From: a virus
Virus record (IMG/VR): IMGVR_UViG_2890901082_000001
Span: 1-64,000 of that record
DNA: 64,000 nt
Direction: 5' to 3' (one strand)
Shown: piece after piece, positions 10,727-56,077 of the stretch
Layout: every line of letters starts with the position of its first letter
How positions within the stretch are numbered: position 1 is the stretch's first letter
Program-made: the position numbers and the translations under genes
Notes under the pieces: model-generated
Told to the model about the DNA's origin: nothing
What the model saw: only the letters and a program-made list of their open reading frames with translations
Databases searched by the model: none

Positions 10727-10732
10727 TTTTAA

Positions 10733-10750: not shown

Positions 10751-10800
10751 ACATGGGGGGTGTCATCTTATTACAAATTAACTTGTAAAAGTGCGGTGCA

Positions 10801-32712: not shown

Positions 32713-33696
32713 TTAATTAGTTACAATTTTTGCGATGTTTTTTTCTTCGATCAAGCCCGTACCCCAGATAGCATACCAAGCTAGACTTTTGATTCTTCCG
32801 AAATCACTAACACCCGATTCACGAATTTGTGGCATTAAACCCCAAGCATTACCATAAGCATTCTCGCCAAAGATAACTGCTTCGGATACTCTGTCAGAAG
32901 GAGCCGTTACTCCATACTTCGTTGCATAAGCAGCGGGATCATAAACAGGCATTTGAGTTGTCTCAAGGAAGACTACACCCTCATAAGTGCCTATTTCACC
33001 TGAAAAAAGTTGACGTGTACCAGCATATTTATTCGCCTCGATCCATCTTGAATCCTCGCGTAATTGCCTTAACTGCCTTGGAGATGCGATACATACGTAG
33101 TACTCTCCATTGAACTTAGGGGCATCATTAGAGGCTAATAGTTCAACTGCATCTAATACAGAATTTGAATCAAAATTATCTGATCCCGATAGTGATGCAA
33201 GATCGGCTTTACCACCACCATACAATACGTTTGGTGTAGATGTTACAATATCTCTCAACTCACTATCTAGAGTTTTTGCCATATCGTTTGAAAGAGCAAT
33301 AGTTGCCTCCTCAATCAAATCAAACATGGATACACGTAACTTAAACTCTGAGAGTGTTACTGCATTACCTTTCTCTTGAACCGTAATTCCAATTTCACTG
33401 GAACTAAGTGCTTGAGATGAAATTGTAGCGTGTTCATCCAATGTGCCACCACTAACGCCTAAATCATCAAAACGAGTGAAGATTACCTGCTTACCTGGTG
33501 CAGTCATTAAGTTTGTTTTCTCCTTAGCAAATTGAAGAAACTTCAGTCGTGGTTGTGCATGATATAAAAGCTCACGCGAGTAAACATCACGAACTGCTTG
33601 AGAAAGTACCGTACCATTTGTGCCTGGGCTTGTAGCGTTATACCCGCCTTGGATAGCAGAAGAATATGCTTGACCGTTACTATTAACGAAAGACAT
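32713..33696 (-). CDS. major capsid protein (HK97-fold type, 327 aa)
   Basis: Size. Position after the scaffold-like gene. The N-terminal region (AVRDVYSRELLYHAQPRLKFLQFAKEKT) is typical of capsid proteins. Own motif copy upstream. Confidence 0.7.
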   Translation of the reverse strand: MSFVNSNGQAYSSAIQGGYNATSPGTNGTVLSQAVRDVYSRELLYHAQPRLKFLQFAKEKTNLMTAPGKQVIFTRFDDLGVSGGTLDEHATISSQALSSSEIGITVQEKGNAVTLSEFKLRVSMFDLIEEATIALSNDMAKTLDSELRDIVTSTPNVLYGGGKADLASLSGSDNFDSNSVLDAVELLASNDAPKFNGEYYVCIASPRQLRQLREDSRWIEANKYAGTRQLFSGEIGTYEGVVFLETTQMPVYDPAAYATKYGVTAPSDRVSEAVIFGENAYGNAWGLMPQIRESGVSDFGRIKSLAWYAIWGTGLIEEKNIAKIVTN

Positions 33697-33705
33697 CTTA
33701 GATTA

Positions 33706-33717
33706 AATATTTGTGTG
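33706..33717 (-). promoter_or_regulatory. conserved upstream motif copy, 9 nt before ATG 33696 (capsid gene)
   Basis: aatatttgtgtg on the + strand. Confidence 0.6.
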
Positions 33718-33722
33718 TAGAA

Positions 33723-34679
33723 CTACCCTCCGTAATTCGCTGACATCTGCGCTCGTACTGATGCTAGAGCAGCTTCACGCACATTGGCGTATTCTGGAGA
33801 GTCCCCCCTCATACCTGGAGCGATCAGTTGGTTCTCGGTTGGTGTTGTGACAACGGACTGAACGGGCGGGTATGGGGCTTGCGCTTGAGGAGTCTGATAC
33901 ATTTGAGCAACAGATGGTTGCTGCGGTTGTTGTGGTTGAGCTACTGCTTGTTGTGTAGGTTGTGCAGTTGGCTGTACTCCTTGTTGCGGTTGTTGTGGTT
34001 GAGCGTTGTTGTACCTCGCTCTCGCCATTTTTGAGGCTTCAACTGAAGCATCGATTTCTTGAGGTGTTCCTCCCATGATCATTTCGGGAATGATCTGATC
34101 ACCGTATTCTGAAATCTTTTGCTGTCGGTAGTTCTCAATCTGTTGGTGCTGTACTGACTGTAGCGTTTGAGTAAGTGGGGCTACTGTTGCCTGTAAAATA
34201 TCATTTACTTTACTAGCTACGATTTGGTCCAAGTTTTGATTTGCAGCGGGGATTTGTTGTACTGTAGGAACAGTCTCTACCCCTTGCTGTGGTTGAGTCT
34301 GGTTGTGATTCTGAGGTTGTGGGGATTGAGGAGGCTGAACCTGTTGGTTAGTCGCAAGTTGAGATCTAAGATTGTTGACCGTATCATACATTCTATTTTT
34401 CTCTACTTGTCTTTGACTATTCAGATAAGCTTGAGCTTGATCTAAAGGAACAGCTTGGCCGTCGAGCATAATTGTTTGAACCTGTTGTGGCTGTGGCGGT
34501 GTTGGATTCTGTTGTGGTTGCGGAACTGTATGTGTCACGTTCTGCGAAGTGTTGCTTTGAATCTGTTGCTGAACCTGTTGGCTCGAAGCTGACGTTTGAA
34601 CAGGGGTAGTCCCTGTAGTCTGTACAGATTGTGGTGGATTAGGTGTTGCCGTGGGTTGTTGTGCTGTATTTTGTGACAT
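33723..34679 (-). CDS. Gln/Pro-rich low-complexity protein in the scaffolding position (318 aa)
   Basis: Lies between the portal and capsid genes. QQPQQ-type repeats flank a helical core. Confidence 0.4.
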   Translation of the reverse strand: MSQNTAQQPTATPNPPQSVQTTGTTPVQTSASSQQVQQQIQSNTSQNVTHTVPQPQQNPTPPQPQQVQTIMLDGQAVPLDQAQAYLNSQRQVEKNRMYDTVNNLRSQLATNQQVQPPQSPQPQNHNQTQPQQGVETVPTVQQIPAANQNLDQIVASKVNDILQATVAPLTQTLQSVQHQQIENYRQQKISEYGDQIIPEMIMGGTPQEIDASVEASKMARARYNNAQPQQPQQGVQPTAQPTQQAVAQPQQPQQPSVAQMYQTPQAQAPYPPVQSVVTTPTENQLIAPGMRGDSPEYANVREAALASVRAQMSANYGG

Positions 34680-34704
34680 GCTTTTGACTAATTATGCTAA
34701 AAGA

Positions 34705-34917
34705 TTATTTGTGATACTCAGTGTTCGGGTAGTGAACATTTGGGTTACGCAATTGTGCGTTCAATCGGCTTGATGCTTCAGGCTTAATGCTGTTTTCCAT
34801 CATGTGCTGATTTCCCAAAGGAGCCTTTACGTTATTCACGAATGCTCCCGAAGTTTTTTTACCATCAGCTTTCACTTTTGCCGCAAGTGAAGAAGCTGCA
34901 TCATATTCGTTTCTCAT
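34705..34917 (-). CDS. hypothetical protein (70 aa)
   Basis: ORF track. Motif copy 7 nt upstream of the ATG. Confidence 0.4.
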   Translation of the reverse strand: MRNEYDAASSLAAKVKADGKKTSGAFVNNVKAPLGNQHMMENSIKPEASSRLNAQLRNPNVHYPNTEYHK

Positions 34918-34924
34918 GACTTAA

Positions 34925-34936
34925 AATATTTGTGTG
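34925..34936 (-). promoter_or_regulatory. conserved upstream motif copy, 7 nt before ATG 34917
   Basis: aatatttgtgtg on the + strand. Confidence 0.6.
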
Positions 34937-34994
34937 GATTTTTTAGTCTTATAATACAAAGCTGACTAGTAAATTGCAGACCGTCAACAAGAAC

Positions 34995-35027
34995 TAAAAA
35001 AACCTTGCAAAAAAATTACAAGGCTTT
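34995..35027 (-). terminator. intrinsic terminator downstream of the portal gene
   Basis: The minus-sense RNA forms GCCUUG-loop-CAAGGU (one G-U pair) followed by U7. Confidence 0.5.
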
Positions 35028-35057: not shown

Positions 35058-36950
35058 TTATTCTTCTTGCGGGGGGGTTCCCGAGGATTCTAATTCCCTC
35101 TGTTCCACTAATTTTTGTGCTTCCAACTCTTTATTGAAAATTGCCATTTCTTTCTGTTGATCATTGGAAAGCTTGTTTTGTTTCTCGGCAACTTTAAGTT
35201 GTTCTGCATTTGTAAACTGAGTTTGTCGTATGTTTCTTTCTTCCTCAGCTATTCTTTGTCTGTGCTGCTGCTCTTCTTGATAATTCATTTGTCTAAGCTG
35301 CTGCTCCTCCTGTAAGCCAGCTTGGAATATTGCCATTTCTTTCTGCATATTTTGCTGCTCAATTTGCAGTTTGAGTTGCATTTCTTGTTGAACTTCCTGC
35401 ATTTTCAACTGAGCTTGCTGCTGTATCTCCTGTAGCTTGATTTGTTGCCTTTGCTGAAGTTCTTGCATTTCAATCTGCACCTCAGTTTGTACCTTTTGCT
35501 GCATATTGGCTCTCTCCGCTTCTACTTCGGCCTCCGCTATCTTTTCATTTTTCCACTCTTGCATCACTTCTTCTGCGTTATTTACACCCAGATTATTCAT
35601 GATTCTTTTCTTTGAATTGATTCCAAGTTGAAGCTCTGTTTGTGCAACTTGAACTTCTTGGATCTTATCTTGAGGGAAACCGTATTCGAAGACAGGCTCT
35701 ATCTTATATTCATTTTCAAAAAGAACACTTTCTATAGAGTCTAGTTCTGCAATTGTTTTCTTGATATAGGGAACATTGCCCCCCATAATTCTCGAAATTT
35801 TGAAAGCTAATGCATTAAGACTTGCAATACCTTCAGCATAGCACATCCATTTTTGATCCGCTTCCTGAATAATCGGGTGATAGGTTAGCTTAAGAGCTGC
35901 TGCAGAAGTATTGGATATAGCTTGAATTTTTCCAAGCGAATTTTCGGGAACATTCGAAAGTTCATGCATCGACATTTTCAAACTATCTCTATAGTCTTTT
36001 GCTGCCGAAAGATCTACATCCAATCCCAAGTTAAATACCTGTGCTTCGGGCGGAAGTCCTGACCAAACTTTTCCAAGACCACGAACTAATCCTCCAACGC
36101 TTGCCCCTGTAACTACAGTCGTTGGGCTAGAGTGATAATCAATTATGGCTTTAATATCCAAGGACATTTCGTTATAAATCTTATTGATTTTTAGGATGTC
36201 GTTTGCATCGGATACTCCAAAATAGTGTCCTGCCCTCGGTCTATTTTTTATATGGACTATTGGTATAAATCCAAACTTATTCTCTGCCTCGCTGAATTCA
36301 TACTTTTGGGGATTGACGTAAGAGGTATCTATTTGGAACCAAGTCTGAATCGTTTCTTTGGTAAACCTTGTAATCTTTAGTTTATAGTTGTTTTTGTTTT
36401 TTACTAAAGGCTGACGAATCATAAAAGCAGTTACATCGTCAAACTCCCCCTTATCAAATTCGGGGTAACAATGTCTACTATCTAATACAGAGAATTTTAC
36501 ATAATTCATGTCTGGGACCCATTGTGCCATCGCCCAAACATCTCCGCAAACACTTCCCATCTGAAGCAGTTCATGTGCAAAGATCGCTTTGCCTGTCAGT
36601 TTCCAATGTCGAAGTAAAAACTGTTCTGCTTTTCTCTCTATATCTTCATCCACTACATCAGTAGAGTACTTTGTCACTTTGAAAGAAAAACCATTTTTAC
36701 CAAGAAGGTACATATTGATCTTATCTACAAAGGCTTTTACATAGTTAAAAGCAAGAAGTGTTTCGTTCAGATCTTTCCAATGTTCACCATTATAGAACTT
36801 CCAAAAAAGATTGTATCGTAAAATTCTTTTTGTTTCTGTTTCCGGTGCGCCCGCAATAAAAGTAGAACTTACATAATCACGAAGTATAGTGCTGCCCTCC
36901 TCATTAACCTTGTTATAAGGGTTGACAGTCACTTTCTGATTAAGTGCCAT
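35058..36950 (-). CDS. portal protein with Gln/Glu-rich coiled-coil C-terminal extension (630 aa)
   Basis: N-terminal ILRYNLFWKFYNGEHW portal-type motif. Size. Position near terL. Confidence 0.75.
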   Translation of the reverse strand: MALNQKVTVNPYNKVNEEGSTILRDYVSSTFIAGAPETETKRILRYNLFWKFYNGEHWKDLNETLLAFNYVKAFVDKINMYLLGKNGFSFKVTKYSTDVVDEDIERKAEQFLLRHWKLTGKAIFAHELLQMGSVCGDVWAMAQWVPDMNYVKFSVLDSRHCYPEFDKGEFDDVTAFMIRQPLVKNKNNYKLKITRFTKETIQTWFQIDTSYVNPQKYEFSEAENKFGFIPIVHIKNRPRAGHYFGVSDANDILKINKIYNEMSLDIKAIIDYHSSPTTVVTGASVGGLVRGLGKVWSGLPPEAQVFNLGLDVDLSAAKDYRDSLKMSMHELSNVPENSLGKIQAISNTSAAALKLTYHPIIQEADQKWMCYAEGIASLNALAFKISRIMGGNVPYIKKTIAELDSIESVLFENEYKIEPVFEYGFPQDKIQEVQVAQTELQLGINSKKRIMNNLGVNNAEEVMQEWKNEKIAEAEVEAERANMQQKVQTEVQIEMQELQQRQQIKLQEIQQQAQLKMQEVQQEMQLKLQIEQQNMQKEMAIFQAGLQEEQQLRQMNYQEEQQHRQRIAEEERNIRQTQFTNAEQLKVAEKQNKLSNDQQKEMAIFNKELEAQKLVEQRELESSGTPPQEE

Positions 36951-36975: not shown

Positions 36976-37776
36976 CTATACAGCTACTTTTGCCGATATA
37001 GCTGGGTGAGGGTTGTAATCGTTTAAATGAATTTGATTGAAATCTAAATCCTCGATGTTTGCGTTTTTTTCAATGTCAAGGGATAGTGTAGGTAGTTGCC
37101 GTTCTACTCTACTTAAGACTTCCTTAACCTGATTAATGTGATTGCTATAAATATGAGCATCGCCAATTGTGTGTATAAATTCACCGACTCCATACCCACA
37201 AATTTGTGCGATAACATGCGTAAGAAGAGCATAACTAGCGATATTGAAAGGAACGCCCAAAAAGAGGTCGGCTGATCTTTGGTATAATTGGCAAGATAGT
37301 TTTTTGTCTTTCGAAACATAAAATTGAAAAAGTAGATGGCACGGAGGCAAGGCCATTTCTTGCAAGTCCGAAACATTCCACGAAGATACAATATGTCTAC
37401 GACTTTTAGGATCTCTTTTCAAATCATAAATCAATTTTGAAATCTGATCGTATTCGATACCTAAATTATCTCTCCAGCTCCTCCACTGCTTACCGTATAT
37501 TGGTCCCAAGTCTCCAAATTCATCCGCCCACTCATTCCAAATACGTACACCATTTTCATTCAGATACTTTATGTTGGTATCCCCCTTCAGGAACCAAAGC
37601 AATTCATGAACGATGCTTTTCCAATGCAGCTTCTTAGTCGTCTGTAATGGAAATCCTTTATTCAAGTCAAAACGCATTTGATAACCAAAAACAGAAAAGC
37701 AACAAATACCCGTCCTATCTTCTCGTAACTCGCCATGCTCTAATACATGGCTTAACAATTTGTGATACTGCTCCAT
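36976..37776 (-). CDS. thyA: thymidylate synthase (ThyA-type)
   Basis: [43 protein letters not shown] and the catalytic [13 protein letters not shown]. Confidence 0.9.
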
Positions 37777-38417
37777 TATAATCCTTTCGCTACAGCTCTG
37801 CTATGTGAATCTACCATAATAGATTTTTGATGTGACAGTTCTGATTGAGTATAAAACACTTTAGCAAATTTTGAGGTATGTGTAATTGACTCTGCTTCTT
37901 CTACCCCCCTTGCCATCATGCATGTGTGTCTTGCCGAAACCATGACAGCAATTTCTCCATGTCCCAGTATCTTAGAAAATACATGATGAATAATCTTTGT
38001 TAGATTTTCTTGTGTGGTTGGTTGCTTTGCAAGGTATTGTATCAGTCTAGGTATTTTTGAAAGACCAAGTATCAATCCATTTTTTGGGTTGTATCCAAAA
38101 CTAACTTTACCAAAGAAGGGCATAAAGTGATGCTCGCAGTAAGAGTAAAAACGAATATCCGATAGCATTACAAACTCAGCATTAGGTTCTTTAAATGCCG
38201 TTATTTTAGGTACTTTGGTAGGATCAAGACCGTGGACTAATTCATTGGTGAAGAACTTTGCTATTCGCTTCGGGGTATCTCTCAACCCTTCCGACTCTGC
38301 GTTTAAGCCAAGCGTTTGTATGATACTCAGTACAGATGCTTCTATCTTTTCTTGAGGAGAAATTTTAGTTTCTTCAGCAACGGGATTCTTAGCTTTTTTC
38401 TTTTTTGTTTCTTTCAT
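37776..38417 (-). CDS. folE: GTP cyclohydrolase I
   Basis: [20 protein letters not shown] and HTCMMARGV signatures. Confidence 0.85.
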
Positions 38418-38844
38418 TTTGTCGAGTTTTTAGAAGTAAATTAATATCAGTATCAGTACTTTCTAGAAAGAATCTAGACACTAATGCTAGTATCTCTGAG
38501 CAACTGTATGACAGCTCATAAAAATGTCTTCCCGTATTGTTTTTATACAAGAAGATAACTTTTGTGATGTAATCGCTTATAACTAAATCACTGAAAGTAA
38601 TGCATACTTTCTCACTGTGAGAAGCTTTTGCACTTAATCTAAGTACAGTGTTTAATGCATATAATTCTGCAAGACATAAAACAACATCAACGAATAACCT
38701 TTGTAGCTGTTCTTTACCTTGGGCTTCGAGTATATTTTGATTTAAAACATCAAGCTCCTGCAGAACTTGTGTAGTATCTCTGAGATATGGTAGCCCCTTC
38801 ATCAAATTCTGAAATTTGAAGGATAGATAATTGTTCCTTGGCAT
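38389..38844 (-). CDS. hypothetical protein (151 aa)
   Basis: ORF track. 29-nt overlap with folE. Confidence 0.45.
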   Translation of the reverse strand: MPRNNYLSFKFQNLMKGLPYLRDTTQVLQELDVLNQNILEAQGKEQLQRLFVDVVLCLAELYALNTVLRLSAKASHSEKVCITFSDLVISDYITKVIFLYKNNTGRHFYELSYSCSEILALVSRFFLESTDTDINLLLKTRQNERNKKEKS

Positions 38845-39146
38845 TACTTAATCCGTTTAAAGTTTGTAAGTTTCTGTTCTAAGTTTATCGAATCTCTGCA
38901 GGGGTACGATGCTTTGCGATCCACAAGCCTTTGACCTGATGCTTCGCTAAGATATTTCACACAACTTTCGATTCCCTTTTCATTGTATATTTTATAGCAT
39001 TCTCTAAGTTCATCTAATGTCATGTTCTCTAGTTTATTCAAGTTCTTTGAATATCCTCCAATTTTGTTTTTGACATTACTGTTTAAATAGGGAGAGATAA
39101 CGCGTTCTAGTTTTCTATACAATAAGTATTCTTGACATGTTGACAT
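38844..39146 (-). CDS. hypothetical protein (100 aa)
   Basis: Start moved to MSTCQEY (ATG 39146), 4 nt after the terL stop. The longer track ORF would overlap terL by 149 nt. Confidence 0.4.
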   Translation of the reverse strand: MSTCQEYLLYRKLERVISPYLNSNVKNKIGGYSKNLNKLENMTLDELRECYKIYNEKGIESCVKYLSEASGQRLVDRKASYPCRDSINLEQKLTNFKRIK

Positions 39147-39150
39147 GGTA

Positions 39151-40812
39151 TTAATGAGAAAGGTTTGAGTAAATAGATCTTGAATTTTGCAATTCAGCAT
39201 AAAGAGGATTATCAACAACTTCAACTTGATAGTCACTGCTCTCAACCATGATACTATTGCCTGCAAGTACCATAAGTCCGAGAGAATCCACGTAGTCATC
39301 GAACGTTCCCCTGTCTTTTTCCAAGATCAAATAAGACCCCTCATACCTTTTCGTAACACCCTTCAGTTGGTCTTCAAATTTAGTGAATTCTTCTGAAGAT
39401 CGTGTGGCTTTGTTAGCAGGAAATTCAATACGTCCACTTTCCATATCGTTTGATAAGGATACCCACATTTCGGATTTGCTTTGTTGAGTAAATGTGTAAG
39501 GAACAACCTCAACAACTTCCATCAAGGCATGCGTAAGTCGATCAACTACCGCTCGCCCAACTCCGGTATAATCCGCGTATAGGATACAAACTTGAAAAAG
39601 CTTTAATGCATCAAGCAGTGCGTAGTGCTGTTGCTCGTAGTCCATGTTTCCGAAATCGTACCATCGTAGGATCTCCTTTTTTCTGATAGGTAAAGCAAAT
39701 TCTGATTCTCCTTCCTGGTCAACTTCCTTCACTCTAGCTATAGTAAGGACAGTAGATGCAGGATGTTTTGCAATGTCCAATCCTGCAACAACTACATCTC
39801 CATCATTTAAGTAGGAAGCCAAACCTTTACGACCATTAGCCATTTTCTTAAAAAGAGAGTCCGTTACAAACTGACCACTTTCTAACGCCCATTTTAACTC
39901 ATAGTTTAGTTCAAATGCTTCAGTATCTCCCCTACGCTCTGCTCTCGCTTTTTCATTCAATACAGACTTTTCATAGAAGGAGTGCATTCTTACTTTCGTC
40001 TTCTCGTAAACTTCTTTTTTGTATTTTGAAACCTGTTTCCAATTGAATTCAAAATGCAATTTTAGTCTTGGGTCCTTAATTCTTGTAGACCTTTTTGAGT
40101 TGTACTGTATGTCATCCCAGAAATGGTTTTTAGTTCTACCTGTAGTACCAATTTTTACACAGCATCCACCAACAGCACTTAGCATTGGCATAATGGATTT
40201 ATCTATTATCCATGTATCCACATCTTGAGCCTCGTCTATGAATGCGATTGAGAATGACTTACTTTCAATTTTTGATGTTTTACCACAACTCTGCCCTTTC
40301 ATGAAACTACCATTTGATAGATTCAGATTTACCGAACTTGTATTCTCTACATCAATGTCGGGATCTGCCATGATCTCAACTGCCGACTGGCTATTGAGGG
40401 CTTTCATAATACGTTGGTAACTTGTAGAAACCTGTTCTTTTTGGGGTGCAAATAGTCCAACCATAACACCGTCTTTAAACTGTGAGAAGTATTCCGGTAG
40501 AATGTTAGCCATTGCAGGGAACAGCACTGTAATGGTGGGAACAAGAAAAACGATTGCCTCTGTCTTTCCTGCTTGTCGGCTGATCAAAACCGTAAAGGTT
40601 TCTCCATCAACCTTCAGAAGTGAATAGATTGCCCTGAAAACTATTAAGAACTGATAGTAATATAATTCGATACCCGTTAATGCCTTTCCGAATTCGATTA
40701 TATTTAATATTAGTTGAATTAAGTCATCATCCGCCAGATTCTTTGCCGTATCCTCTAGCTTCTTTTTTGACTGAGCTTTCAGACGTACTCTATTGCCGCG
40801 AGCCGTCTTCAT
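39151..40812 (-). CDS. terL: terminase large subunit
   Basis: Walker A-like ISRQAGKTEA, Walker B IAFIDEAQD, and a C-terminal RNaseH-like nuclease region (VVAGLDIA...ILYADYTGVG). Confidence 0.85.
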   Translation of the reverse strand: MKTARGNRVRLKAQSKKKLEDTAKNLADDDLIQLILNIIEFGKALTGIELYYYQFLIVFRAIYSLLKVDGETFTVLISRQAGKTEAIVFLVPTITVLFPAMANILPEYFSQFKDGVMVGLFAPQKEQVSTSYQRIMKALNSQSAVEIMADPDIDVENTSSVNLNLSNGSFMKGQSCGKTSKIESKSFSIAFIDEAQDVDTWIIDKSIMPMLSAVGGCCVKIGTTGRTKNHFWDDIQYNSKRSTRIKDPRLKLHFEFNWKQVSKYKKEVYEKTKVRMHSFYEKSVLNEKARAERRGDTEAFELNYELKWALESGQFVTDSLFKKMANGRKGLASYLNDGDVVVAGLDIAKHPASTVLTIARVKEVDQEGESEFALPIRKKEILRWYDFGNMDYEQQHYALLDALKLFQVCILYADYTGVGRAVVDRLTHALMEVVEVVPYTFTQQSKSEMWVSLSNDMESGRIEFPANKATRSSEEFTKFEDQLKGVTKRYEGSYLILEKDRGTFDDYVDSLGLMVLAGNSIMVESSDYQVEVVDNPLYAELQNSRSIYSNLSH

Positions 40813-41062: not shown

Positions 41063-41365
41063 ATGAACAAAATTGTTAGACTGTACGTGTACGAATCTGA
41101 TCTACTCGACTCTGAATATATTCGAACAGAATTAGAGGAAGGCGTGCTACTTCGAATTAAAGAGTCTAAGCGACCAAGCACCGCATTTGCTTACGACCTT
41201 GTAATGCTTCAGTACGAACATAGAAGATATGATGTTTGTGCAACTAAGCAAGAAGATGGAGACAGATTGCTATCTTTCGAAATTTCAAATCATGGGATTA
41301 GAAGCAACAAAATGAAAACTAGTGACATTTTACAGTTCACTAAAAACTACTCGCACGCTAATTAA
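41063..41365 (+). CDS. hypothetical protein (100 aa), plus strand
   Basis: ORF track. Divergent from terL. Followed by a bidirectional terminator. Confidence 0.45.
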   Translation: MNKIVRLYVYESDLLDSEYIRTELEEGVLLRIKESKRPSTAFAYDLVMLQYEHRRYDVCATKQEDGDRLLSFEISNHGIRSNKMKTSDILQFTKNYSHAN

Positions 41366-41433: not shown

Positions 41434-41463
41434 GGCGCACGATGCGCGTTTAACGGGGGGGGG
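41434..41463. repeat. GC hairpin GCGCA-cga-TGCGC (41434-41446) followed by a G10 homopolymer (41454-41463)
   Basis: Read directly from the sequence. Unusual for this AT-rich genome. Confidence 0.6.
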
Positions 41464-41477: not shown

Positions 41478-41526
41478 CAAAAAAGCCATGCGCCGACTAA
41501 GGTACATGGCTTCTTTTATTTTTTAA
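41478..41526. terminator. bidirectional intrinsic terminator between convergent genes
   Basis: AGCCATG (41484-41490) pairs with CATGGCT (41505-41511). A-run upstream and T-run downstream. Confidence 0.6.
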
Positions 41527-41533: not shown

Positions 41534-42709
41534 TTATTCAGTAACTACTTCTAGATCACCGCTAAATCTTATTTCATTCTTGCGCATCTGAAGATGTGAA
41601 GATTTAAGAGCGCTTATCAGTTCAAATGAAAGCGGGTTCTCTTTACCGCTTACTTCTTTAGTAAACTGATCTAGTCCAATAATACGCGCGGCATTTTCAC
41701 CGCCATATCTGACACCAACTTGATTGATATTAAAGTCGTCATACTCTGGCGCGTCGTTAATACCGACTTGGTCGGCGCGCGAAACTACATCATGTTCGCA
41801 ATGAACATCAGATACAGAAACCGCATATTTGATATGCATATTCTCTTTGGTTAGGTTAGCTACTTCTTTTTCTGTAAGCTCTCTGAGCGTTACCATTCTT
41901 AGCGCATTTCTGTACGCGTATACGAGGCACGCGTTTTTTGAGTGCGAATGTGAAGAGTCGCAGAACATCACGCTTTTAAAATTCTCATGCTCTTGTATGT
42001 GATGCATAAAATTATGCATCATAACTTCTTCCAACTGCGCTTCACTAAGCTCTTCAACGGGTACGCCATTATGGGCGCTTTTTAGCAATTTATCTTTAAA
42101 GACAATATCGGTTACTGCTACATTTCTGATCGAGCGCACTTGTCTCGATAAAATATCCGACTTTATTTGCTCTATATCGTTAGACTTTAAAAAATCATCT
42201 GAATACAGTTCTTTAGCTTGTTCATCTAAAGTTTTAGAACGGCTTTCTTGTGGTCGCGCTTCCATCTCTAGTGCGTACACTGACTCCAATGTATACTCCA
42301 AGGATTCGTTTTTAGCGCTAATAAATCTACTCTGCTTTGATATGGTTTCTTTCTTTTCGAAACAATTTCCAAAATAAGGGAAGACTGCTTCAGTCAACCA
42401 CTCATTGAATACTTGTTTTTTTCCAGCTACTGTTTTTAAAGGAGCATCTTTCGCTTTTTCAATCGACCATAGGATAAAGATTGCGCTTACTGCTTTTGCT
42501 TTTAAATCTTTTAACAGTGGTTTGACTGTTTTGGTGAACTCACTTTTAGTTCTTTCATCAGGAGCAAGCGCTCCGAAGTCAGCTAATGCATCTGTAATAG
42601 ATGCGTTGTTTAAATACTCAACAAGTCTAGTTTTTACTTGAATCAATCCGATTTTAGCGATGTATTTTTTATTGTTTTCCATAATACTAAGCGCAGTAAT
42701 CAACTGCAT
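41534..42709 (-). CDS. hypothetical protein (391 aa) with atypical GCGC-rich codon usage
   Basis: Long ORF. AAACTTAAAAAT box directly upstream of ATG 42709. About 17 GCGC tetramers, versus near absence elsewhere. Confidence 0.55.
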   Translation of the reverse strand: MQLITALSIMENNKKYIAKIGLIQVKTRLVEYLNNASITDALADFGALAPDERTKSEFTKTVKPLLKDLKAKAVSAIFILWSIEKAKDAPLKTVAGKKQVFNEWLTEAVFPYFGNCFEKKETISKQSRFISAKNESLEYTLESVYALEMEARPQESRSKTLDEQAKELYSDDFLKSNDIEQIKSDILSRQVRSIRNVAVTDIVFKDKLLKSAHNGVPVEELSEAQLEEVMMHNFMHHIQEHENFKSVMFCDSSHSHSKNACLVYAYRNALRMVTLRELTEKEVANLTKENMHIKYAVSVSDVHCEHDVVSRADQVGINDAPEYDDFNINQVGVRYGGENAARIIGLDQFTKEVSGKENPLSFELISALKSSHLQMRKNEIRFSGDLEVVTE

Positions 42710-42811
42710 ATTTTTAAGTTTTGAGAAACGAGAACGGTTGATGATGTCGCGCTCGTCATTGGTGTTGTTGATCTTAAATGATCATATTATAATATAACAA
42801 TTATCAACTAA

Positions 42812-42823
42812 TACACAAATATT
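42812..42823 (+). promoter_or_regulatory. single inverted (plus-sense) copy of the conserved motif, TACACAAATATT
   Basis: This is the only copy oriented toward the + strand. No convincing ORF follows it. Confidence 0.45.
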
Positions 42824-42851
42824 TTTTGAATTATTTTTATATTTTTTCATA

Positions 42852-42907
42852 TAGTATATTTAATAAATATGGATAGTATATGAGACTAAATTTTAAATAC
42901 AGTATAC
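42852..42907. repeat. three (T/C)AGTATA(T/C) repeats spaced 22 and 26 nt apart in a very AT-rich tract (iteron-like)
   Basis: tagtatat at 42852 and 42874, cagtatac at 42900. Confidence 0.35.
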
Positions 42908-43411
42908 TAAAATCATTATTTAAACATACACTAAGCAACTTTTTGAAATTCACACACCTCACTCCGATGCATGTACTCGCGTGCTAAACTCCTTACCTTT
43001 AAATTGTACTTTTCTAATATACGCGCCTAGATTCCCTACACATCCTCAACAAAACAATCTTTCGTCAATCCTAAATTCCTCCAAATACATTTTATTCCTT
43101 CTCGCGGATCCACCTCCACCTCACCAAAGAATATTCTGTGATGCCTTTGCCCATATTCCCACACATGCGGGACAGCCTAAATGCTCCATACCTCCCATAA
43201 CCTCCTAAAAATCAAGGCGTTCACTTCTCTCCCGCCTAACACACACGCAAATACACAAAGAGATAAAAGACTATTAAGAAGCACACTCACCCATTTCTCT
43301 CTCTATTTCACTGTTATTAATGCTATTTCCTATATAAAGCTATACCTTTTTCTCGCGCGAAAATTTTAGCCCCAACAACCGACTTATATAAGTTTCCTAG
43401 ATTAAGGGCAT

Positions 43412-43445
43412 AAAAAAAGACACAACTCATAGAACTGTGCCTTTT
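43412..43445 (-). terminator. intrinsic terminator (minus sense)
   Basis: The minus RNA forms AAGGCACA-loop-UGUGUCUU (one G-U pair) followed by U7. Confidence 0.55.
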
Positions 43446-43594
43446 ATACATGTGATTTTCTTAATAATTACTTCTGTGAACGTTAAGCATAACTTGCTAT
43501 TGCCTTTATGTAGTCTACATCCTTCTTTTCCGCCAAATTTTTGACTGAAAGAAAAACACCGCTCAAGGAGCAATGCCTTTCTATTCTTGTTCAT
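43427..43594 (-). CDS. possible 55-aa ORF, a partial paralog of the upstream gene
   Basis: My own translation: MNKNRKALLLERCFSFSQKFGGKEG.... It shares a near-identical 22-nt stretch (ccttcttttccgccaaattttt) with 43612..43998 and ends inside the terminator hairpin. Confidence 0.2.
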   Translation of the reverse strand: MNKNRKALLLERCFSFSQKFGGKEGCRLHKGNSKLCLTFTEVIIKKITCIKGTVL

Positions 43595-43611
43595 TAATCT
43601 TCATTAATCAT

Positions 43612-43998
43612 CTATACCTTATAGGGGAGTCTATGGACTAACATTCTAGAACATCTTCCGTCTTCCCCTTTTGCTTTGGAGTGGTCCCACAAATACAAAA
43701 TGAATATTACGCTGCTATCCTCAGTTTTTATATGGATAGTTGCACTCCTATTCTCTGTAAGAGTGTACCTTCTTTTTCCGCCAAATTTTTCTTCTTGTTT
43801 CTTTGTAGGCATGGCTAGGCCATCCTTATCCAAATACCACATCTCAGGATAACGTTCCTCGCGAGTCTGGTATGACCAAACATGCAAGGGCATCCCTGCG
43901 GGTTTTGTACTGATAAGATTTTTCATGTACTCGTATTGAGTACTAATTGTGCTAAATACTTTTGTTAAATCAATAACCTCTTTTGTAGTTGATTCCAT
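43612..43998 (-). CDS. hypothetical protein (128 aa)
   Basis: ORF track. TTAAACTTAAAA box upstream. Confidence 0.5.
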   Translation of the reverse strand: MESTTKEVIDLTKVFSTISTQYEYMKNLISTKPAGMPLHVWSYQTREERYPEMWYLDKDGLAMPTKKQEEKFGGKRRYTLTENRSATIHIKTEDSSVIFILYLWDHSKAKGEDGRCSRMLVHRLPYKV

Positions 43999-44215: not shown

Positions 44216-44249
44216 AAAAAAAAGACACATTTCAGTGAAACATGCCTTT
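44216..44249 (-). terminator. intrinsic terminator downstream of the radC-like gene
   Basis: The minus RNA forms a 12-bp stem (with G-U pairs) followed by U8. Confidence 0.55.
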
Positions 44250-44277: not shown

Positions 44278-44721
44278 TTATATAAGTCCTTCGTCTGCAA
44301 ACGAGTAGTATCCTTGATCACTGATTACCAAGTGATCTAACACGGGTAGTTCTAGATATTTCCCCGCTGCTTTTATTTTGTTCGTAAACTGTATATCAGC
44401 CGAGCTTGGCTGAAGATTACCTGAGGGGTGATTGTGCACTAAGATCACCGAACTTGCCTGTGCGACAAGTGCGTGACCGAAAACTTTTTTGGGGTCTGCT
44501 GACGTTCCTGCAATACCACCAATGGATATAGTTTTCACCCCAATCACTTCGTTGGCTCTGTCAATTAAGATTATTTTTAGGGACTCATAAAAAGCTATGT
44601 CGTCCCCATAAAACGGGAGAATAATTCTATATCCGTCCTTAGATGTTCTAAGCCTTCCAAGTGACTTTTCTCTGTTTATCTCATAGGAGTATTTCAACTC
44701 CTTTATCATGAAGTCTTCCAT
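44278..44721 (-). CDS. radC: RadC-like JAB/MPN domain protein
   Basis: JAMM-type signature VHNHPSGNLQPSSADIQFT. Confidence 0.8.
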   Translation of the reverse strand: MEDFMIKELKYSYEINREKSLGRLRTSKDGYRIILPFYGDDIAFYESLKIILIDRANEVIGVKTISIGGIAGTSADPKKVFGHALVAQASSVILVHNHPSGNLQPSSADIQFTNKIKAAGKYLELPVLDHLVISDQGYYSFADEGLI

Positions 44722-50158: not shown

Positions 50159-51514
50159 TTATGCAGATTTTTTTAAGCATTCCACACCATTAATTACTGC
50201 CATAATTAAGCTCCTTGCCATGTTTACTTCAACAGCATTGCCGATGTACTTTTTCTTTTCCGTTTGGGTTCCCACCAGCTCATAGGATTCAGGAAATCCT
50301 TGTATTTTTTTCAACTCATCAATATTCAGCATCCTCATGCTAATGTCTTTGATTCCATAAGCCTGCATGAACCTCTTTATCTTCTGTGTATTGTCAGAAT
50401 CCTTCGTGTCAATTTTTAAATGCTCACCTTCTTGTACTGAAACCAAGTACGGAGGCGCCTTATCCATTCTAGCAATAAGAGTAAAACAAGGGTTTTCTAA
50501 AGACTTCCCTTTGCTAGCGTATTGAGGGTTTAGTAGAAACTGAGCCTCTACTACATTGTACTTGGGTATCGTTGTGAGTGACCCACAGGGTTCGTCAACG
50601 GATTTCGGTCTTCCATTTCCAAATTGCTGATCAATAAAGATCATGCTATATCTATCCTTAGTTGTTATTGTTCCTGACGGAGAATCGATACTATGTGCGG
50701 ATCCCTGTCCATAGTAGGAAGTCAGAAACGTAGTATCTCCTCCGGCTACGAACTTTTCTAACCCTAAATAGATGCGATTTAATGTTGACTCGGCTAGAGC
50801 CTTTTTTCTATTGAAGATAGAGTCCCCTCTAACATCGAGGTCTAAGACTTCTTTTACGGGTTTCCAAGGTTGCTTGTATCCTTCAAAAAGGTCACTTGGG
50901 TTTGGTCTTTTTGCATGTGTGGGTTGGGGAAAGCTTATCGGGAGCCCTTCTTTTACGAACTGTATAAACAATCTAGATCTAGACTGATATGCCCCATAGT
51001 CAGCCGAATTTAGTATTCGGGATTCCATTCGGTATCCCAAATTGCACACTTTTTTAGACCATCTTAAAAAGCTTCTTCCCTTAAATCTAGAGAGAGGTTT
51101 TCCATTTTCATCCAATGGCCCCCATGCTAAGAACTCTCTGACGTTCTCAACCATGAATATATTGGGCTGGATCTCCTCCAAGTAGGAGAACATATGTTCT
51201 GCTAAACTTCTTGAGTCCGCTTTTTTGGGTTTTCCACCTTTAGCGTTACTAAAATTCGTACACTCTAAAGAAGCCCAGAGACATATGAGAGCTGACGGGT
51301 CTTTTTTTCTTAAGTCCTTAGCCATAACTCCCAAAGCAGCGGATACGGCTAAGTCTCGAATATCCTCCGTAAAATGTCTTGCTCCTGGGTGATTTTTTGT
51401 ATGAGACAGTATTGCGTTTTTGTCGTGATTCACACACGCAATTACATTTGCTCCTGCTAAGTGAGCGCCTGTACTCGTCCCTCCCGCACCGCAGAATAGA
51501 TCGATGAAATACAT
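50159..51514 (-). CDS. dcm: DNA (cytosine-5)-methyltransferase
   Basis: Motif I FIDLFCGAGGTSTG. Catalytic variant WASLECTNFSNAKGG. Also MVENV, QSRSRLF and C-terminal IGNAV. Confidence 0.85.
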   Translation of the reverse strand: MYFIDLFCGAGGTSTGAHLAGANVIACVNHDKNAILSHTKNHPGARHFTEDIRDLAVSAALGVMAKDLRKKDPSALICLWASLECTNFSNAKGGKPKKADSRSLAEHMFSYLEEIQPNIFMVENVREFLAWGPLDENGKPLSRFKGRSFLRWSKKVCNLGYRMESRILNSADYGAYQSRSRLFIQFVKEGLPISFPQPTHAKRPNPSDLFEGYKQPWKPVKEVLDLDVRGDSIFNRKKALAESTLNRIYLGLEKFVAGGDTTFLTSYYGQGSAHSIDSPSGTITTKDRYSMIFIDQQFGNGRPKSVDEPCGSLTTIPKYNVVEAQFLLNPQYASKGKSLENPCFTLIARMDKAPPYLVSVQEGEHLKIDTKDSDNTQKIKRFMQAYGIKDISMRMLNIDELKKIQGFPESYELVGTQTEKKKYIGNAVEVNMARSLIMAVINGVECLKKSA

Positions 51515-52328: not shown

Positions 52329-52790
52329 TTAGGTTAAGTTTAATTCGTAAATACTTCTTGGAGTTTCCTCAAATCTAATCCTTGTAAGTACTATTCCTTC
52401 AGGAAGCCTATTCTTAATATAGTTTGCTATATACCTACAGATTACCTCAGATGTTGGGGGTTGTTGTAACCAAACAACTTTTCCTTTCATCCCAAATCTT
52501 TTTCCTAAATATCTGTCCTGTAATGCTGCAAGCTCCTGCATGTAGGGATCATTCTCCTCAGCGATTAACGAGTGATCCAATTTTTCAATTACTTCTTTTA
52601 CAATTTTTCCCGCATCGCCAAAGGGCATTTCTACACTATCAACTTCTGAGGTACTTTTCACCTCTACTTCTAAACTAGCGTTATGCCCGTGCAAGCTTGC
52701 ACATGGATCTTCACCTTTCTTCATTTCAGCGAAAATCATATTAGCATGTGCAAAGCTTATACTATGATCGTATTTTTTAATTACTGACAT
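52329..52790 (-). CDS. queD: 6-carboxy-5,6,7,8-tetrahydropterin synthase (QueD/PTPS family)
   Basis: SFAHANMIF...CASLHGHNASLEVEV (C-x3-H-G-H). Start taken at MSVIKKYDH. Confidence 0.8.
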   Translation of the reverse strand: MSVIKKYDHSISFAHANMIFAEMKKGEDPCASLHGHNASLEVEVKSTSEVDSVEMPFGDAGKIVKEVIEKLDHSLIAEENDPYMQELAALQDRYLGKRFGMKGKVVWLQQPPTSEVICRYIANYIKNRLPEGIVLTRIRFEETPRSIYELNLT

Positions 52791-53091
52791 TTTCCTCCAC
52801 TTTTTTTGTAAAACTGCTTTCGAAAATCTGTTTAGAGATTCTAAGAGGATAATCATCTTCTTTACCCAAGTCTTTTACCAGATAGTCATCCTTAAATATT
52901 ACGAGTGTAGGAAGCTCTTTCTGATAGAATTCGATCTTACCCGTTTTCTCAAAATATTTGAACTTTGCTTTATTTTCTGAGGTGTTCTTCACCGTCCCTT
53001 TTCCATAGAAAAACTCGATGACTTTTTGTGCGTTTTTCCCTGTCCACTGTATAGCGTTTACCTCTTGTGGATTTCTTACGTAAATGTCCAT
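52777..53091 (-). CDS. hypothetical protein (104 aa)
   Basis: ORF track. Overlaps the queD start by 14 nt. Confidence 0.45.
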   Translation of the reverse strand: MDIYVRNPQEVNAIQWTGKNAQKVIEFFYGKGTVKNTSENKAKFKYFEKTGKIEFYQKELPTLVIFKDDYLVKDLGKEDDYPLRISKQIFESSFTKKVEENVSN

Positions 53092-53402
53092 TATGATGCG
53101 TATAAAAAAATGAATGAAATGTCACCTTCTTTAGTGACCCTAATTTTGACTACATTTTCAAGGGGTAATTGCATAGAATCTTGAGTAGAAGTATATGCCC
53201 CCACATATCCATTCCCACCATCAACTTCAACTGTAGCTCCGTTGATGTTTGATAAGAGAACAGACTTAGCCCCTGTGCAATCCAACTCAACACCTCCATT
53301 CGCTGCTGTTGGAGAATTAATGCTGTTTTCATCACTCAACTTTGGTGTTAGTGATTTCACCTGAAAGGATTTGCTGTAGAATGTTTGTGTACCTGCTTCC
53401 AT
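53091..53402 (-). CDS. hypothetical protein (103 aa)
   Basis: ORF track. 1-nt overlap with the downstream gene. Confidence 0.45.
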   Translation of the reverse strand: MEAGTQTFYSKSFQVKSLTPKLSDENSINSPTAANGGVELDCTGAKSVLLSNINGATVEVDGGNGYVGAYTSTQDSMQLPLENVVKIRVTKEGDISFIFLYAS

Positions 53403-54173
53403 CTATTTGTTACGTTTTATTCTTTTTCTTTTTATAACTTCTTTAGGAGGATCCTTTTCCTCTGTAGTAATTTCTTCATGCGGAATTTCTTCTATTGATT
53501 CCGCTTTTTCGGGTAGTTCCTCCTCAGTCTTTTTACCAAAAAACGAAGCCAAAATACCGCCTGCAGGTTTCGAGGTTTCATCTTTGGAGGTACTGCTTGC
53601 CTGTATCGTCAGTGTTTGTCTATTCTGACCCATACGATCCGCTAAGTCAGCAAGCTTTGCCATACGATCAATTTCACCTGATAGTATCATGTCCGTTTTA
53701 CCTCCATCGGTTTTCTCTGCTGCACTTTCAACTGCAATCCTCTTGGACTGTATATCAATAAGTTCTTTTATGATCTCTTTTGGTGAAAGTTCTTTCATGC
53801 TCTCACTTTCCCAGTCGAAGGCACATTCTGACGACTCCTCAAAATATGGGCAAGAGGTATTCATGTAGCATTTCACACAACTAATCCCGATTTCTTTGGC
53901 GGGAATTTTTTTGGTCCTCTTTACAGGAGCATCCCAAGTAGCACTCCATTCGAGCTGAGGTCTTGCCGATATTTTAAGAAGAAATTCCTTTTTACACTTA
54001 GACATGATGCTTGGATCACTACATCCTTCGCACTTGTCTTCATCTCCGAATTCTTCTAGCCTATTCTTCATGAAGCAGTTGCATATTATGTTTTTATGCA
54101 TCAACTCCGAGTAGTGCATTGAGAGAGCTTTTACCCACTCTTCTACCTGTTCTTTTGTTTCTTTTGTAATCAT
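53403..54173 (-). CDS. Cys-rich hypothetical protein (256 aa) with acidic/basic C-terminal tail
   Basis: Nine Cys residues, including CNC, CEGC and CVKCYMNTSCP...C. No family recognised. Confidence 0.5.
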   Translation of the reverse strand: MITKETKEQVEEWVKALSMHYSELMHKNIICNCFMKNRLEEFGDEDKCEGCSDPSIMSKCKKEFLLKISARPQLEWSATWDAPVKRTKKIPAKEIGISCVKCYMNTSCPYFEESSECAFDWESESMKELSPKEIIKELIDIQSKRIAVESAAEKTDGGKTDMILSGEIDRMAKLADLADRMGQNRQTLTIQASSTSKDETSKPAGGILASFFGKKTEEELPEKAESIEEIPHEEITTEEKDPPKEVIKRKRIKRNK

Positions 54174-54337
54174 AGTATTCCAAATAGCCTACAGAAAAAG
54201 TATATCAGCATTAGAGCTACAAAGTTTTTAAACAAAACCTGTACGAATTGAAGTACAAGAAATTTGATAATCTCAAAGCCTACACAACACGCGTAGACGA
54301 TAACAAATCCGAAAAATGTGTATATAAGTGCTACCAT
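54170..54337 (-). CDS. possible small hydrophobic protein (55 aa, 2 TM)
   Basis: My own translation: MVALIYTFFGFVIVYACCVGFEIIKFLVLQFVQVLFKNFVALMLIYFFCRLFGIL. ATGA overlap with the next gene. Confidence 0.35.
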   Translation of the reverse strand: MVALIYTFFGFVIVYACCVGFEIIKFLVLQFVQVLFKNFVALMLIYFFCRLFGIL

Positions 54338-54353
54338 ATCTATCCTTATGTTT

Positions 54354-55379: not shown

Positions 55380-56077
55380 TGATCAAAAAGTGAGAAAGTT
55401 GACATATACTCAAGTTGGTCCTTATATAAGGCTTCAATATGAGGTTTTACATCTTGATCGAAACAATCAATCCCTATATCATTATTAGCAAGTGCTACTG
55501 CTTTTCTTACACAGGCAGAACACTTACCACACCCCTTATCTGTAGTAGGGGCATAACAAGAAATGAGTTCAGAAATTTCTTTTTCTGTAACCACATTTTC
55601 CTCAAGACATAGGTTTAATGCTTCAGACTTGGACAAGTCCTTATGCGGGGAAATAACTTCGGGGGAGAACCCTTTCCAGTTTTCGGGTTTAGGTACATTG
55701 TAATAATATACCTTCATAAAGTTCTCTACAGCTTTGAGAATATCTTCGTTAGTGTCCCTAAAAAAGTCAAATACTGTAGTTCCAACAAAAACTTTTGGAG
55801 CATGCTCAAAAGCCTTGAGGAAAAAATAAATATTGCGAAGAGGAACATAATGGTTTGCCTCAGACTCCATCCTAAATGTATCATTGATCTTAAGATCTTC
55901 ATTAGGGGCGTATATCTGATTACGTACTTGTTCCTGTTCTCTTTTTGAATAATCTACACCTACATTGAAGTGTAAAAGCGTGAGTGGTTCTAGTGATTCC
56001 CTTAATCGCTTTCTAAGCAAAAAAGAGTCAAAGCCTCCTGAATACAGAAGTACTTTAGGTTCATATTTGTGTGACAT
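55343..56077 (-). CDS. queC: 7-cyano-7-deazaguanine (preQ0) synthase
   Basis: PP-loop VLLYSGGFDSF, then PLRN, and the C-terminal Zn-Cys cluster SCY...GCGKCSACVRK. Confidence 0.8.
   Translation of the reverse strand: MSHKYEPKVLLYSGGFDSFLLRKRLRESLEPLTLLHFNVGVDYSKREQEQVRNQIYAPNEDLKINDTFRMESEANHYVPLRNIYFFLKAFEHAPKVFVGTTVFDFFRDTNEDILKAVENFMKVYYYNVPKPENWKGFSPEVISPHKDLSKSEALNLCLEENVVTEKEISELISCYAPTTDKGCGKCSACVRKAVALANNDIGIDCFDQDVKPHIEALYKDQLEYMSTFSLFDQWQEEYEKALDK

Follow-up and report, generated by a model that had tools for sequence, protein, structure and literature searches.

The locus and its gene context

The DNA analysed here comprises positions 1 to 64,000 of the IMG/VR virus record IMGVR_UViG_2890901082_000001 and is referred to as the window. 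It contains a long gene-free gap upstream of the gene for the large terminase (TerL), and this gap probably acts at the level of the DNA as a control site, for example an origin of replication. The open reading frame (ORF) of 391 aa that adjoins the gap is 100% identical to HGP29_27055 from Flammeovirga sp. SR4 (F. agarivorans, Bacteroidota), located on a 95.9-kb contig, and the window is a phage-like element of Flammeovirga agarivorans SR4. Because almost all of its genes are encoded on the minus strand, this strand is termed the gene or sense strand. No cultured phage close to the window by DNA was found. The best large-terminase relatives are 46-52% identical, with the nearest TerL at 52%, and the major capsid and tail-region genes of the window are common to these relatives.

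The gap is situated at the boundary between the DNA-metabolism genes and the packaging and structural genes. The DNA-metabolism module, at ~50-64 kb, encodes RecA/UvsX-like, AAA+ and VWA proteins, a Cas4-like exonuclease and a Holliday-junction resolvase, as well as QueC, two DpdA/TGT-like ORFs and a cytosine-C5 methylase. An earlier sequence-only reading had singled out the gap as the longest non-coding stretch. Indeed, nowhere else in the window is there so long a run free of ORFs of 80 aa or more, and the gap extends further than that reading had noted, i.e., from 42710 to 43611 (902 nt). The elements which the same reading had listed are all present where it had placed them. GenBank gives no annotation between the flanking genes HGP29_27055 and HGP29_27060, and since the locus tags and protein accessions of these genes are consecutive, nothing is annotated in the gap.

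Two adjacent compositional extremes

The larger part of the gap is a strand-lopsided tract at about 42950-43370, which had previously been described as containing very little G on the plus strand. The base counts agree with this description (A 124, C 131, G 42, T 124). Among 420-nt segments of the window, the tract has the strongest GC skew, namely -0.51 to -0.54 versus a mean of -0.09 (sd 0.11), while coding segments of the phage reach skews of -0.37 to -0.40. Other intergenic regions in the window have 22-42% GC and skews of -0.2 to +0.3, none of them near the value of the tract. With 41% GC and a non-repetitive sequence, its composition is therefore unlike that of these AT-rich, low-skew spacers. 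RNA with the gene-strand sequence of the tract would contain 31% G and 10% C, and the gap as a whole has only 11% C on that strand.

The G/T-rich motifs of the tract (GTGTG, GCGTGTG, GGTGG) are strictly one-stranded. On the gene strand, GTGTG occurs six times, with overlaps, at four separate sites, compared to 0.79 occurrences expected (p<0.002). The tract is the best 420-nt window of the 64 kb for this motif and holds 6 of its 24 occurrences in the window. Besides these motifs, the minus strand carries four copies of GGAGG and three of TTTAGG.

The skewed tract is directly abutted by an extremely AT-rich part, as had been noticed before. This part, 42771-42930, has the lowest GC content of the window (11% per 100 nt; 11-14% for the tract) and the least stable duplex of the 64 kb, with -97 kcal/mol per 100 bp versus a mean of -127. 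Two window-wide extremes are thus adjacent. In addition, the AT tract contains three short A-tracts (Table 1), with a phasing of the kind expected to bend DNA.

Absence of a gene or a recognisable RNA

The gap is not a gene, and no recognisable RNA is encoded in it. When trained on 31 window genes, a codon model scores positive across both flanking genes, and zero or negative in all frames from 43600 to 42720. The two plus-strand ORFs of 75 and 62 aa, which had been set aside as artefacts, score -0.08 and -0.11 versus a gene mean of +0.19. Each minus frame contains at least 13 stops, and as these are of all three kinds in every frame, a single reassigned stop codon could not open a frame. When the tract was translated in its three sense frames and searched as a single joined query, 5.8 billion proteins gave no match at E<=10, and a tblastn search of the region with the proteins of relatives and of the window gave nothing meaningful.

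At the RNA level, Rfam 15 gave no match at the gathering score in the window, and a lenient scan produced only terminator-driven hits with E above 1. A scan for tRNA and tmRNA found none. In folding predictions, neither strand of the tract beats its shuffles (z 0.65 for minus, 0.25 for plus), and a plus-strand RNA would be almost structure-free (472 nt, minimum free energy -51 kcal/mol). Searches for conserved sequence were equally negative: neither the region nor the orphan gene was matched in a phage collection by DNA or by protein, viral contigs contained no close relatives, and a 20-mer from the tract gave only three chance matches among genome contigs, from which the source genome itself was not recovered.

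Terminators and the orphan gene downstream

On its upstream side, the gap is bounded by three hairpins, named T1 to T3 (Table 1). They are related in sequence (AAAGGCA...GTGTCTTTTT) and, at 44221-44249, 43548-43580 and 43412-43444, lie within 850 nt. As minus-strand RNA, T1 folds with -11.3 kcal/mol (z -4.5), T2 with -19.7 kcal/mol (z -4.7) and T3 with -13.7 kcal/mol (z -3.8), versus -2.5, -8.7 and -7.1 kcal/mol on the plus strand, none of which is significant. In T3, G-U pairs occur only in the minus-strand RNA. Because the three hairpins fold well only as minus-strand RNA, the upstream transcription units end serially before the gap. A 55-aa ORF across T2 scores as non-coding. Moreover, an exact 17-nt repeat, TTTTCCGCCAAATTTTT, is found at 43774-43790 in the 128-aa gene and at 43526-43542 in the spacer between T2 and T3, encoding KFGGK in the same frame at both sites; judging from this repeat, the spacer may hold the remnant of a partial duplication. 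Further long-stem terminators on the minus strand at 48451, 46388, 45082 and 35027 split this part of the window into many short transcription units.

On the minus strand, the 391-aa orphan gene alone separates the gap from TerL. A 19-codon upstream mini-ORF overlaps its RefSeq start codon (42709) and ends 18 nt before its GenBank start (42682). At its 3' side, the orphan gene shares a bidirectional terminator with a convergent gene. The latter, at 41063-41365 on the plus strand, is a coding-like 100-aa orphan and one of the few plus-strand genes; its own cluster contains itself alone, and relative to the terminase promoter region its orientation is divergent. The two orphans constitute an island of ~2.6 kb which is lineage-specific and absent from relatives. 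In the GC-rich stretch of 170 nt between the orphan-gene terminator and the end of the 100-aa gene, nine consecutive C of the minus strand (G on the plus strand) occupy 41455-41463.

For the terminase gene, a separate host-type box, TATATTTG, is present at 40897-40890. With terminators on both sides, the orphan gene and its long upstream region make up a self-contained unit between the DNA-metabolism module and TerL. On the minus strand, the exact box TAnnTTTG does not occur between 40897 and 44168, and matches to sigma-70-type promoters are at chance level. A near-consensus box is present in the AT tract: the minus strand of the element at 42811-42823 reads AATATTTGTGTAT, which contains AATATTTG, a 7/8 match to the Bacteroidota -7 promoter box TAnnTTTG. 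From its sequence and position, AATATTTG would provide the promoter of the orphan gene.

The leader motif and its inverted copy

The element just mentioned is also a copy, in plus orientation, of a motif that recurs throughout the window. This motif, CACAAATATT, has 13 exact copies on the minus strand, with an extended consensus CACACAAATATTwwA. Of these, 12 end 6-21 nt before an ATG, and the sequence upstream of the motif is not conserved. In three cases, the motif is located ~95-100 nt past a terminator. At TerL, it lies 47 nt downstream of the host-type -7 box. As the motif is 3' of the -7 box there, and hence would be inside the leader, it is read not as a promoter but as an element of the 5' leader or of translation initiation, probably a phage-specific signal judging from its placement. 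Such a reading suits a host from a phylum in which translation does not depend on Shine-Dalgarno pairing.

The sequence-only reading had reported a single plus-oriented copy, and CACAAATATT at 42814-42823 is indeed the sole exact copy in that orientation. Its flanks are weaker than those of the others (14.7 versus 21-34 bits), no start codon follows within 45 nt, and no exact host-type -7 box was seen upstream. The motif core AAATATTT is palindromic; it occurs 14 times in the window, nine times within minus-strand motif copies. From motif counts and approximate base frequencies, the probability that an inverted copy arises by chance is estimated at about 0.05-0.2. Degenerate motif copies are present at 43240-43262.

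The CCTCC runs of the skewed tract had been likened to the anti-Shine-Dalgarno 3' end of 16S rRNA. CCTCC is found on the plus strand at 43078, 43113, 43191 and 43201, i.e., four times versus 1.0 expected (p 0.02), with ACCTCC (p 0.001) and CCTAAA (p 0.005) occurring three times each. These motifs were picked post hoc, and their enrichments are modest and lie inside a C-rich tract. The likeness itself does not stand: GGATCCACCTCC can be aligned with the 16S rRNA 3' end only by an indel, and no rRNA model matches even at E<=10. The 12 motif-bearing gene starts have A/T-rich, G-free leaders without GGAG. Bacteroidota largely do without Shine-Dalgarno pairing, and the anti-Shine-Dalgarno idea has little footing.

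Look-alike regions in related phages

Three lineages with a TerL 46-48% identical to that of the window contain a similarly laid-out gene-free region. These are L007-L010 and L016, which are ~90-kb gut phage contigs, and the cultured Bacteroides phage BS162P1 (OP172706). As in the window, the region is long, lies upstream of the operon leading to the large terminase gene, and combines an AT-rich tract with an adjoining tract that is G-rich, C-poor and GTGTG-clustered on the gene strand. It measures 1.4-2.1 kb and is located 8-10 kb upstream of the terminase gene, whereas the distance in the window is 2 kb. The genes upstream of the terminase gene vary between lineages.

In L010 and BS162P1, where the region is covered whole, it opens with tandem terminator-like hairpins. 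All three lineages have an AT-rich part with many AATTAG-type repeats (AATTAG(C/G)), as well as a conserved block with a fixed 24-nt spacing, CCCTTAAATGG-N24-GTAGTAC-N-CTTAGGT. The G-rich, C-poor tract extends over ~300-440 nt, with peak skews of +0.53 to +0.56 in 150-200-nt windows and +0.52 across the whole BS162P1 tract. A TAnnTTTG promoter ends the region; in L016 this has the full form TTTG-N20-TAACTTTG. Moreover, a 40-nt GT-rich tandem repeat is present three times in L010 and once in the near-identical L007-L009. Rfam gave no match in the L010 region. By their layout, these gene-free regions look like origin-type or regulatory regions.

The parallel with the window is clearest for GTGTG on the gene strand. 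Its density per kb, in the tract versus elsewhere in the locus, is 14.3 vs 0.28 in the window, 57 vs 0.38 in L010, 33 vs 0.47 in L007, 13 vs 0.49 in BS162P1 and 20 vs 0.66 in L016. This corresponds to a 51-fold concentration in the window tract and a 27- to 150-fold concentration in the tracts of the relatives (gene-free regions at L010 1100-2000; L012 1-880 with L013 3680-4903, for BS162P1; L016 1-1400). GCGTGTG is present in every one of these tracts. No GTGTG cluster was found in L001, L002 and L014, which have no comparable gene-free region (that of L014 being beyond the compared range), nor in L015, where the gene-free region of 980 nt is GC-rich and unskewed.

An origin-type control site as best guess

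Our best guess, which we put forward tentatively on the strength of sequence features, is that the gap combines an origin-like DNA element with the promoter of the orphan gene. It would form a transcriptionally insulated, DNA-level control site between the DNA-metabolism and the packaging and structural modules. In gene-strand order, T1-T3 would stop upstream transcription, followed by the 420-nt tract, which is unique, non-coding, G/T-rich and C-poor with clustered GTGTG, and then by the AT tract of ~150 nt, which would be easiest to melt and carries the phased A-tracts and the near-consensus -7 box. Strands would open in the AT tract, as in origins of the DNA-unwinding-element type, and the one-sided GT-rich tract could act as a protein-loading or priming flank. 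Priming would possibly occur by a transcript-DNA hybrid, as in T4 oriF/oriG, the T7 primary origin and ColE1. We infer the promoter assignment, the unwinding and any replication role from these features.

That the gap functions at the DNA level is argued by several points: two window-wide extremes are adjacent, terminators insulate the site, its composition is not at equilibrium, and a similar layout recurs in relatives. Two such extremes side by side are unlikely to be a neutral spacer. An origin in particular is favoured by the three minus-strand-specific terminators upstream and the bidirectional terminator past the orphan gene, which result in an insulated site. It is also favoured by the encoded homologues of RecA/UvsX, a Cas4-like exonuclease and a Holliday-junction resolvase. 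Such a gene set is characteristic of phages that combine origin firing with recombination-dependent replication, like T4.

The sequence-only reading had also proposed an origin, based on iterons, a DNA-unwinding element, strand asymmetry and the adjacent 391-aa gene as initiator. Of this proposal, the unwinding element and the strand asymmetry hold, while the iterons fail and the initiator is unsupported. The AGTATA repeats (TAGTATAT at 42852 and 42874, CAGTATAC at 42900) are present; as iterons they do not exceed chance, as 36% of dinucleotide shuffles match them (p 0.36). The two outer copies are the arms of an imperfect 20-nt inverted repeat. A self-comparison of the skewed tract showed no excess of direct repeats over shuffles.

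Several observations weigh against an origin. Besides the failure of the AGTATA repeats as iterons, a tandem-repeat finder and a window-wide repeat search found no iteron array anywhere in the window. DnaA boxes (TTWTNCACA, at most one mismatch) number 170 versus 183 expected window-wide, with few in or near the gap and no cluster. The cumulative GC skew, which had been suggested as a check, has no turning point at the gap. As to an initiator, Pfam, PHROG, NCBIfam and PDB gave no match for the 391-aa protein, and PADLOC a weak one only (E 0.0035). Among 5.8 and 1.8 billion proteins its only full-length match is itself, its C-terminal 80 aa weakly match a giant protein with cadherin/Ig repeats, and its AlphaFold model is unusable (pLDDT 35). 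With no homologue, family or usable fold, an initiator role for this protein is unsupported. The recognisable DNA-metabolism genes are located further upstream, at ~50-64 kb, and no polymerase, primase or helicase gene was identified among the scanned window proteins (~32 kb of the contig lies outside the window). With regard to hybrid priming, no promoter was identified between T3 and the skewed tract. By an approximate nearest-neighbour estimate, the difference between RNA-DNA hybrid and duplex energy in the tract, -19.6 kcal per 400 nt (z about -1.4), appears unexceptional and does not place it among the top windows.

The comparison with relatives has its own weak points. Alignment of their regions with the window revealed no sequence similarity, and their conserved blocks, AATTAG-type repeats and GT-rich tandem repeats are absent from it. 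The AT part precedes the G-rich tract in the relatives, which is the reverse of the order in the window, and the parallel in GTGTG is a post hoc observation. A topoisomerase IB gene adjoins the region in BS162P1 and L016 (and also in L015), and no homologue of it was found in the window. Because the iteron-rich region adjoins topoisomerase IB elsewhere, the true counterpart could lie in the other ~32 kb of the contig. Given the post hoc discovery, the reversed order and the missing topoisomerase IB homologue, the idea that the window tract is the functional counterpart of the relatives' tracts is suggestive, not proven.

Comparison with known systems

The origin-type reading has partial precedents. 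Like T4 oriF/oriG, the T7 primary origin and ColE1, the window has its AT element downstream of a stretch whose G-rich transcript could stay hybridised to the C-rich template, and its UvsX/RecA-like recombination gene set resembles that of phages with T4-type origins. In contrast to those systems, no promoter has been identified upstream of the tract, the predicted hybrid stability appears unexceptional, and there is no sequence relationship. Like iteron origins (lambda ori, P1 oriR, R6K, pSC101), it has an AT-rich region for unwinding, placed in intergenic control DNA beside a gene, although significant iterons and a DnaA-box cluster are lacking and the neighbouring protein shows no similarity to any initiator.

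Two other types of site are reminiscent of the skewed tract. A plus-strand RNA would be C-rich (31%), G-poor (10%) and near-unstructured for more than 400 nt, by which it would resemble rut sites such as lambda tR1 and exceed the minimum length of 80 nt. However, all but a few window genes are on the other strand, and the tract is far longer than the typical ~80 nt. Polar G-rich DNA signals such as Chi and the FtsK-orienting KOPS are called to mind by the short G/T-rich motifs of the tract, which are clustered and restricted to one strand, but these motifs have no defined consensus and occupy only 4-6 sites.

Alternative explanations

A possible, though doubtful, alternative is that the gap is only the expression cassette of an accessory orphan gene, with the AT tract as promoter or upstream element and the rest as functionless spacer or untranslated leader. 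Terminators, a -7-like box with phased A-tracts, a gene and again a terminator do make up a classic stand-alone unit, and the island consists of two orphan genes (391 and 100 aa) missing from relatives. The low C content of the gap on the gene strand could, in a leader, at most prevent Rho loading on untranslated RNA. However, ~100 nt suffices for a promoter, not 700-900. Moreover, the -7-like box is located downstream of the skewed tract, which places the tract outside that transcript. In this genome, neutral spacers are rich in AT and lack skew, and a like tract recurs in relatives, upstream of their promoters.

It is rather unlikely that the gap is a packaging or end-protection site, i.e., a pac or terminus region upstream of the terminase gene in which one-sided, G/T-rich, Chi-like polar signals are read by DNA-end-processing enzymes. 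The gap is 1.9-2.6 kb upstream of the large terminase gene with the orphan gene as sole same-strand gene in between, and no small terminase was identified among the scanned neighbours. Known Chi sites are G/T-rich, as are the one-stranded motifs of the tract, and the copy number of the 40-nt GT-rich repeat differs among near-identical relatives. The region is, however, 8-10 kb from the terminase gene in those relatives. The BS162P1 record closes on itself via a 55-nt overlap inside the gene-free region, which is uninformative on physical ends. We know of no Chi or KOPS sequence from Bacteroidota.

A non-coding RNA on either strand is improbable. In one version, which resembles the earlier proposal of an RNA driven by the inverted motif, a C-rich, G-poor, unstructured plus-strand RNA would start near this motif and be ended by Rho. 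An exact inverted copy with degenerate copies at 43240-43262 would fit, and the plus-strand RNA has the longest C-over-G stretches of the window (211 and 137 nt) with almost no predicted structure. RNA that is C-rich, G-poor and unstructured is the textbook loading site for Rho. In the other version, the GUGUG sites and the AAUAUUUGUGUAU segment of a minus-strand RNA would pair with the CACACAAAUAUU leaders of more than 10 phage mRNAs, in keeping with the rarity of gene-strand GTGTG outside the tract. Yet a promoter consensus is seen for neither RNA, the inverted copy may be due to chance, and there is no structure signal and no Rfam family. The version driven by the inverted motif fails further, since the motif behaves as a 5'-leader element, no exact -7 box was seen before it, and the hairpins near the gap (T1-T3) fold on the minus strand only. 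For the pairing version, L010 has a GT-rich tract but just 4 gene-strand CACAC in 21.6 kb, so that a leader motif containing CACAC is hardly to be expected there.

Finally, a decayed former gene or recently acquired foreign DNA, now functionless, would account for the gene-like GC content and sequence complexity, the skews approached by coding segments and the lineage-specific island, but is highly improbable in view of the stops in every frame, the absence of protein similarity in the searches above, a skew that decay should relax rather than raise beyond every coding segment, and the analogous tracts in relatives.

Features of the window

Table 1. Position and strand of the features discussed, in window coordinates
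Feature	Position	Strand	Remarks
Portal gene	35058-36950	minus	
Large terminase gene (TerL)	39151-40812	minus	
Bidirectional terminator	41478-41515		-19.9 kcal/mol minus, -16.7 plus, both z below -4.4
Orphan 391-aa gene	41534-42709	minus	382 aa in GenBank; coding score +0.19
19-codon upstream mini-ORF	42700-42759	minus	read from sequence
Extreme AT tract	42771-42930		candidate DNA-unwinding element and orphan-gene promoter region
Plus-oriented copy of leader motif	42811-42823	plus	minus strand holds the -7-like box
Three A5-6 tracts	42822-42847	minus	starts 9 and 11 nt apart; read from sequence, just upstream of -7-like box
Three (T/C)AGTATA(T/C) copies	42852-42907		present, chance level
Strand-lopsided tract	42950-43370	minus	G/T-rich, C-poor (G 131, C 42); non-coding, non-repetitive, unstructured
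Terminator hairpin T3	43405-43444	minus	T7 tail; family D1; upstream edge of the region in the sequence-only reading
Terminator-like hairpin T2	43548-43580	minus	3' of 128-aa gene; family D1
Terminator hairpin T1	44221-44249	minus	directly 3' of RadC-like gene; scanner hit, repeat family D1
RadC-like gene	44278-44721		
Cytosine-C5 methylase	50159-51514		
QueD-like match	~52359-52703		
DpdA/TGT-like, N- and C-terminal halves	54354-55379 and 53403-54173		two ORFs, 180-nt gap between
QueC-like	55343-56077		
Leader motif copies	63372, 62368, 58091, 57094, 49627, 46286, 44984, 40843, 36967, 34934, 33715, 10742, 303	minus	

Within the DNA-metabolism module, a 7-deazaguanine (queuosine-type) gene set is found at 52329-56077. 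In view of this set and the methylase gene, the phage probably modifies its own DNA. DpdA, which is split, could represent either a pseudogene or a gene that has been interrupted. A 405-aa neighbour gave a weak match to ParM (E 0.01), which a PDB search did not support.

In the packaging and structural part, four genes (36976-39299) separate the terminase and portal genes of the window. In all compared relatives the portal gene directly follows the terminase gene, except in L016, where one acetyltransferase gene is present between them. Some large-terminase homologues have a length of ~900 aa, and two of these records, P0050 and P0085, contain intein or homing-endonuclease Pfam domains. The terminase coding sequence of BS162P1 (record 9334-12057) encodes ~907 aa and matches the query in two pieces. 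From these lengths, domains and the two-piece match, inteins appear to have invaded the terminase gene of this phage family. At 33000-35000, the GC skew of the window is locally reversed (+0.03 to +0.17 on the plus strand) although the genes remain on the minus strand, and a 318-aa gene contains imperfect TTGTTG-rich tandem repeats with a period of 33 at 33918-34006.

Meaning for Bacteroidota phages

To our knowledge, the origins, packaging signals and promoters of Bacteroidota phages are poorly characterised, and a literature search on BS162P1 and on Flammeovirga prophages found nothing relevant. The analysis also illustrates that function cannot be deduced from runs of CCTCC alone where C is abundant, nor from short repeats rich in AT. 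The finding would be an ordinary one if the gap were no more than a long promoter-spacer for an accessory gene. A wider idea, which we regard as speculative and rather improbable, is that a family of ~90-kb Bacteroidota phages, including this Flammeovirga element and gut Bacteroides phages like BS162P1, shares an undescribed cis signal, consisting of a one-stranded GT-rich, C-poor GTGTG/GCGTGTG tract that adjoins an extreme AT tract, within the long gene-free stretch dividing the early genes from the packaging and structural ones. Its architecture would be conserved rather than its sequence, and it might function as a polar origin or loading site or in Chi-like end protection, here perhaps also giving an RNA complementary to the CACACAAAUAUU leaders. 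As BS162P1 is cultured (on Bacteroides salyersiae) and has a named host strain, the idea is directly testable in that phage. If the pairing of the two tracts does mark an origin or a polar signal, such sites would be findable by composition alone in metagenomic phage genomes.

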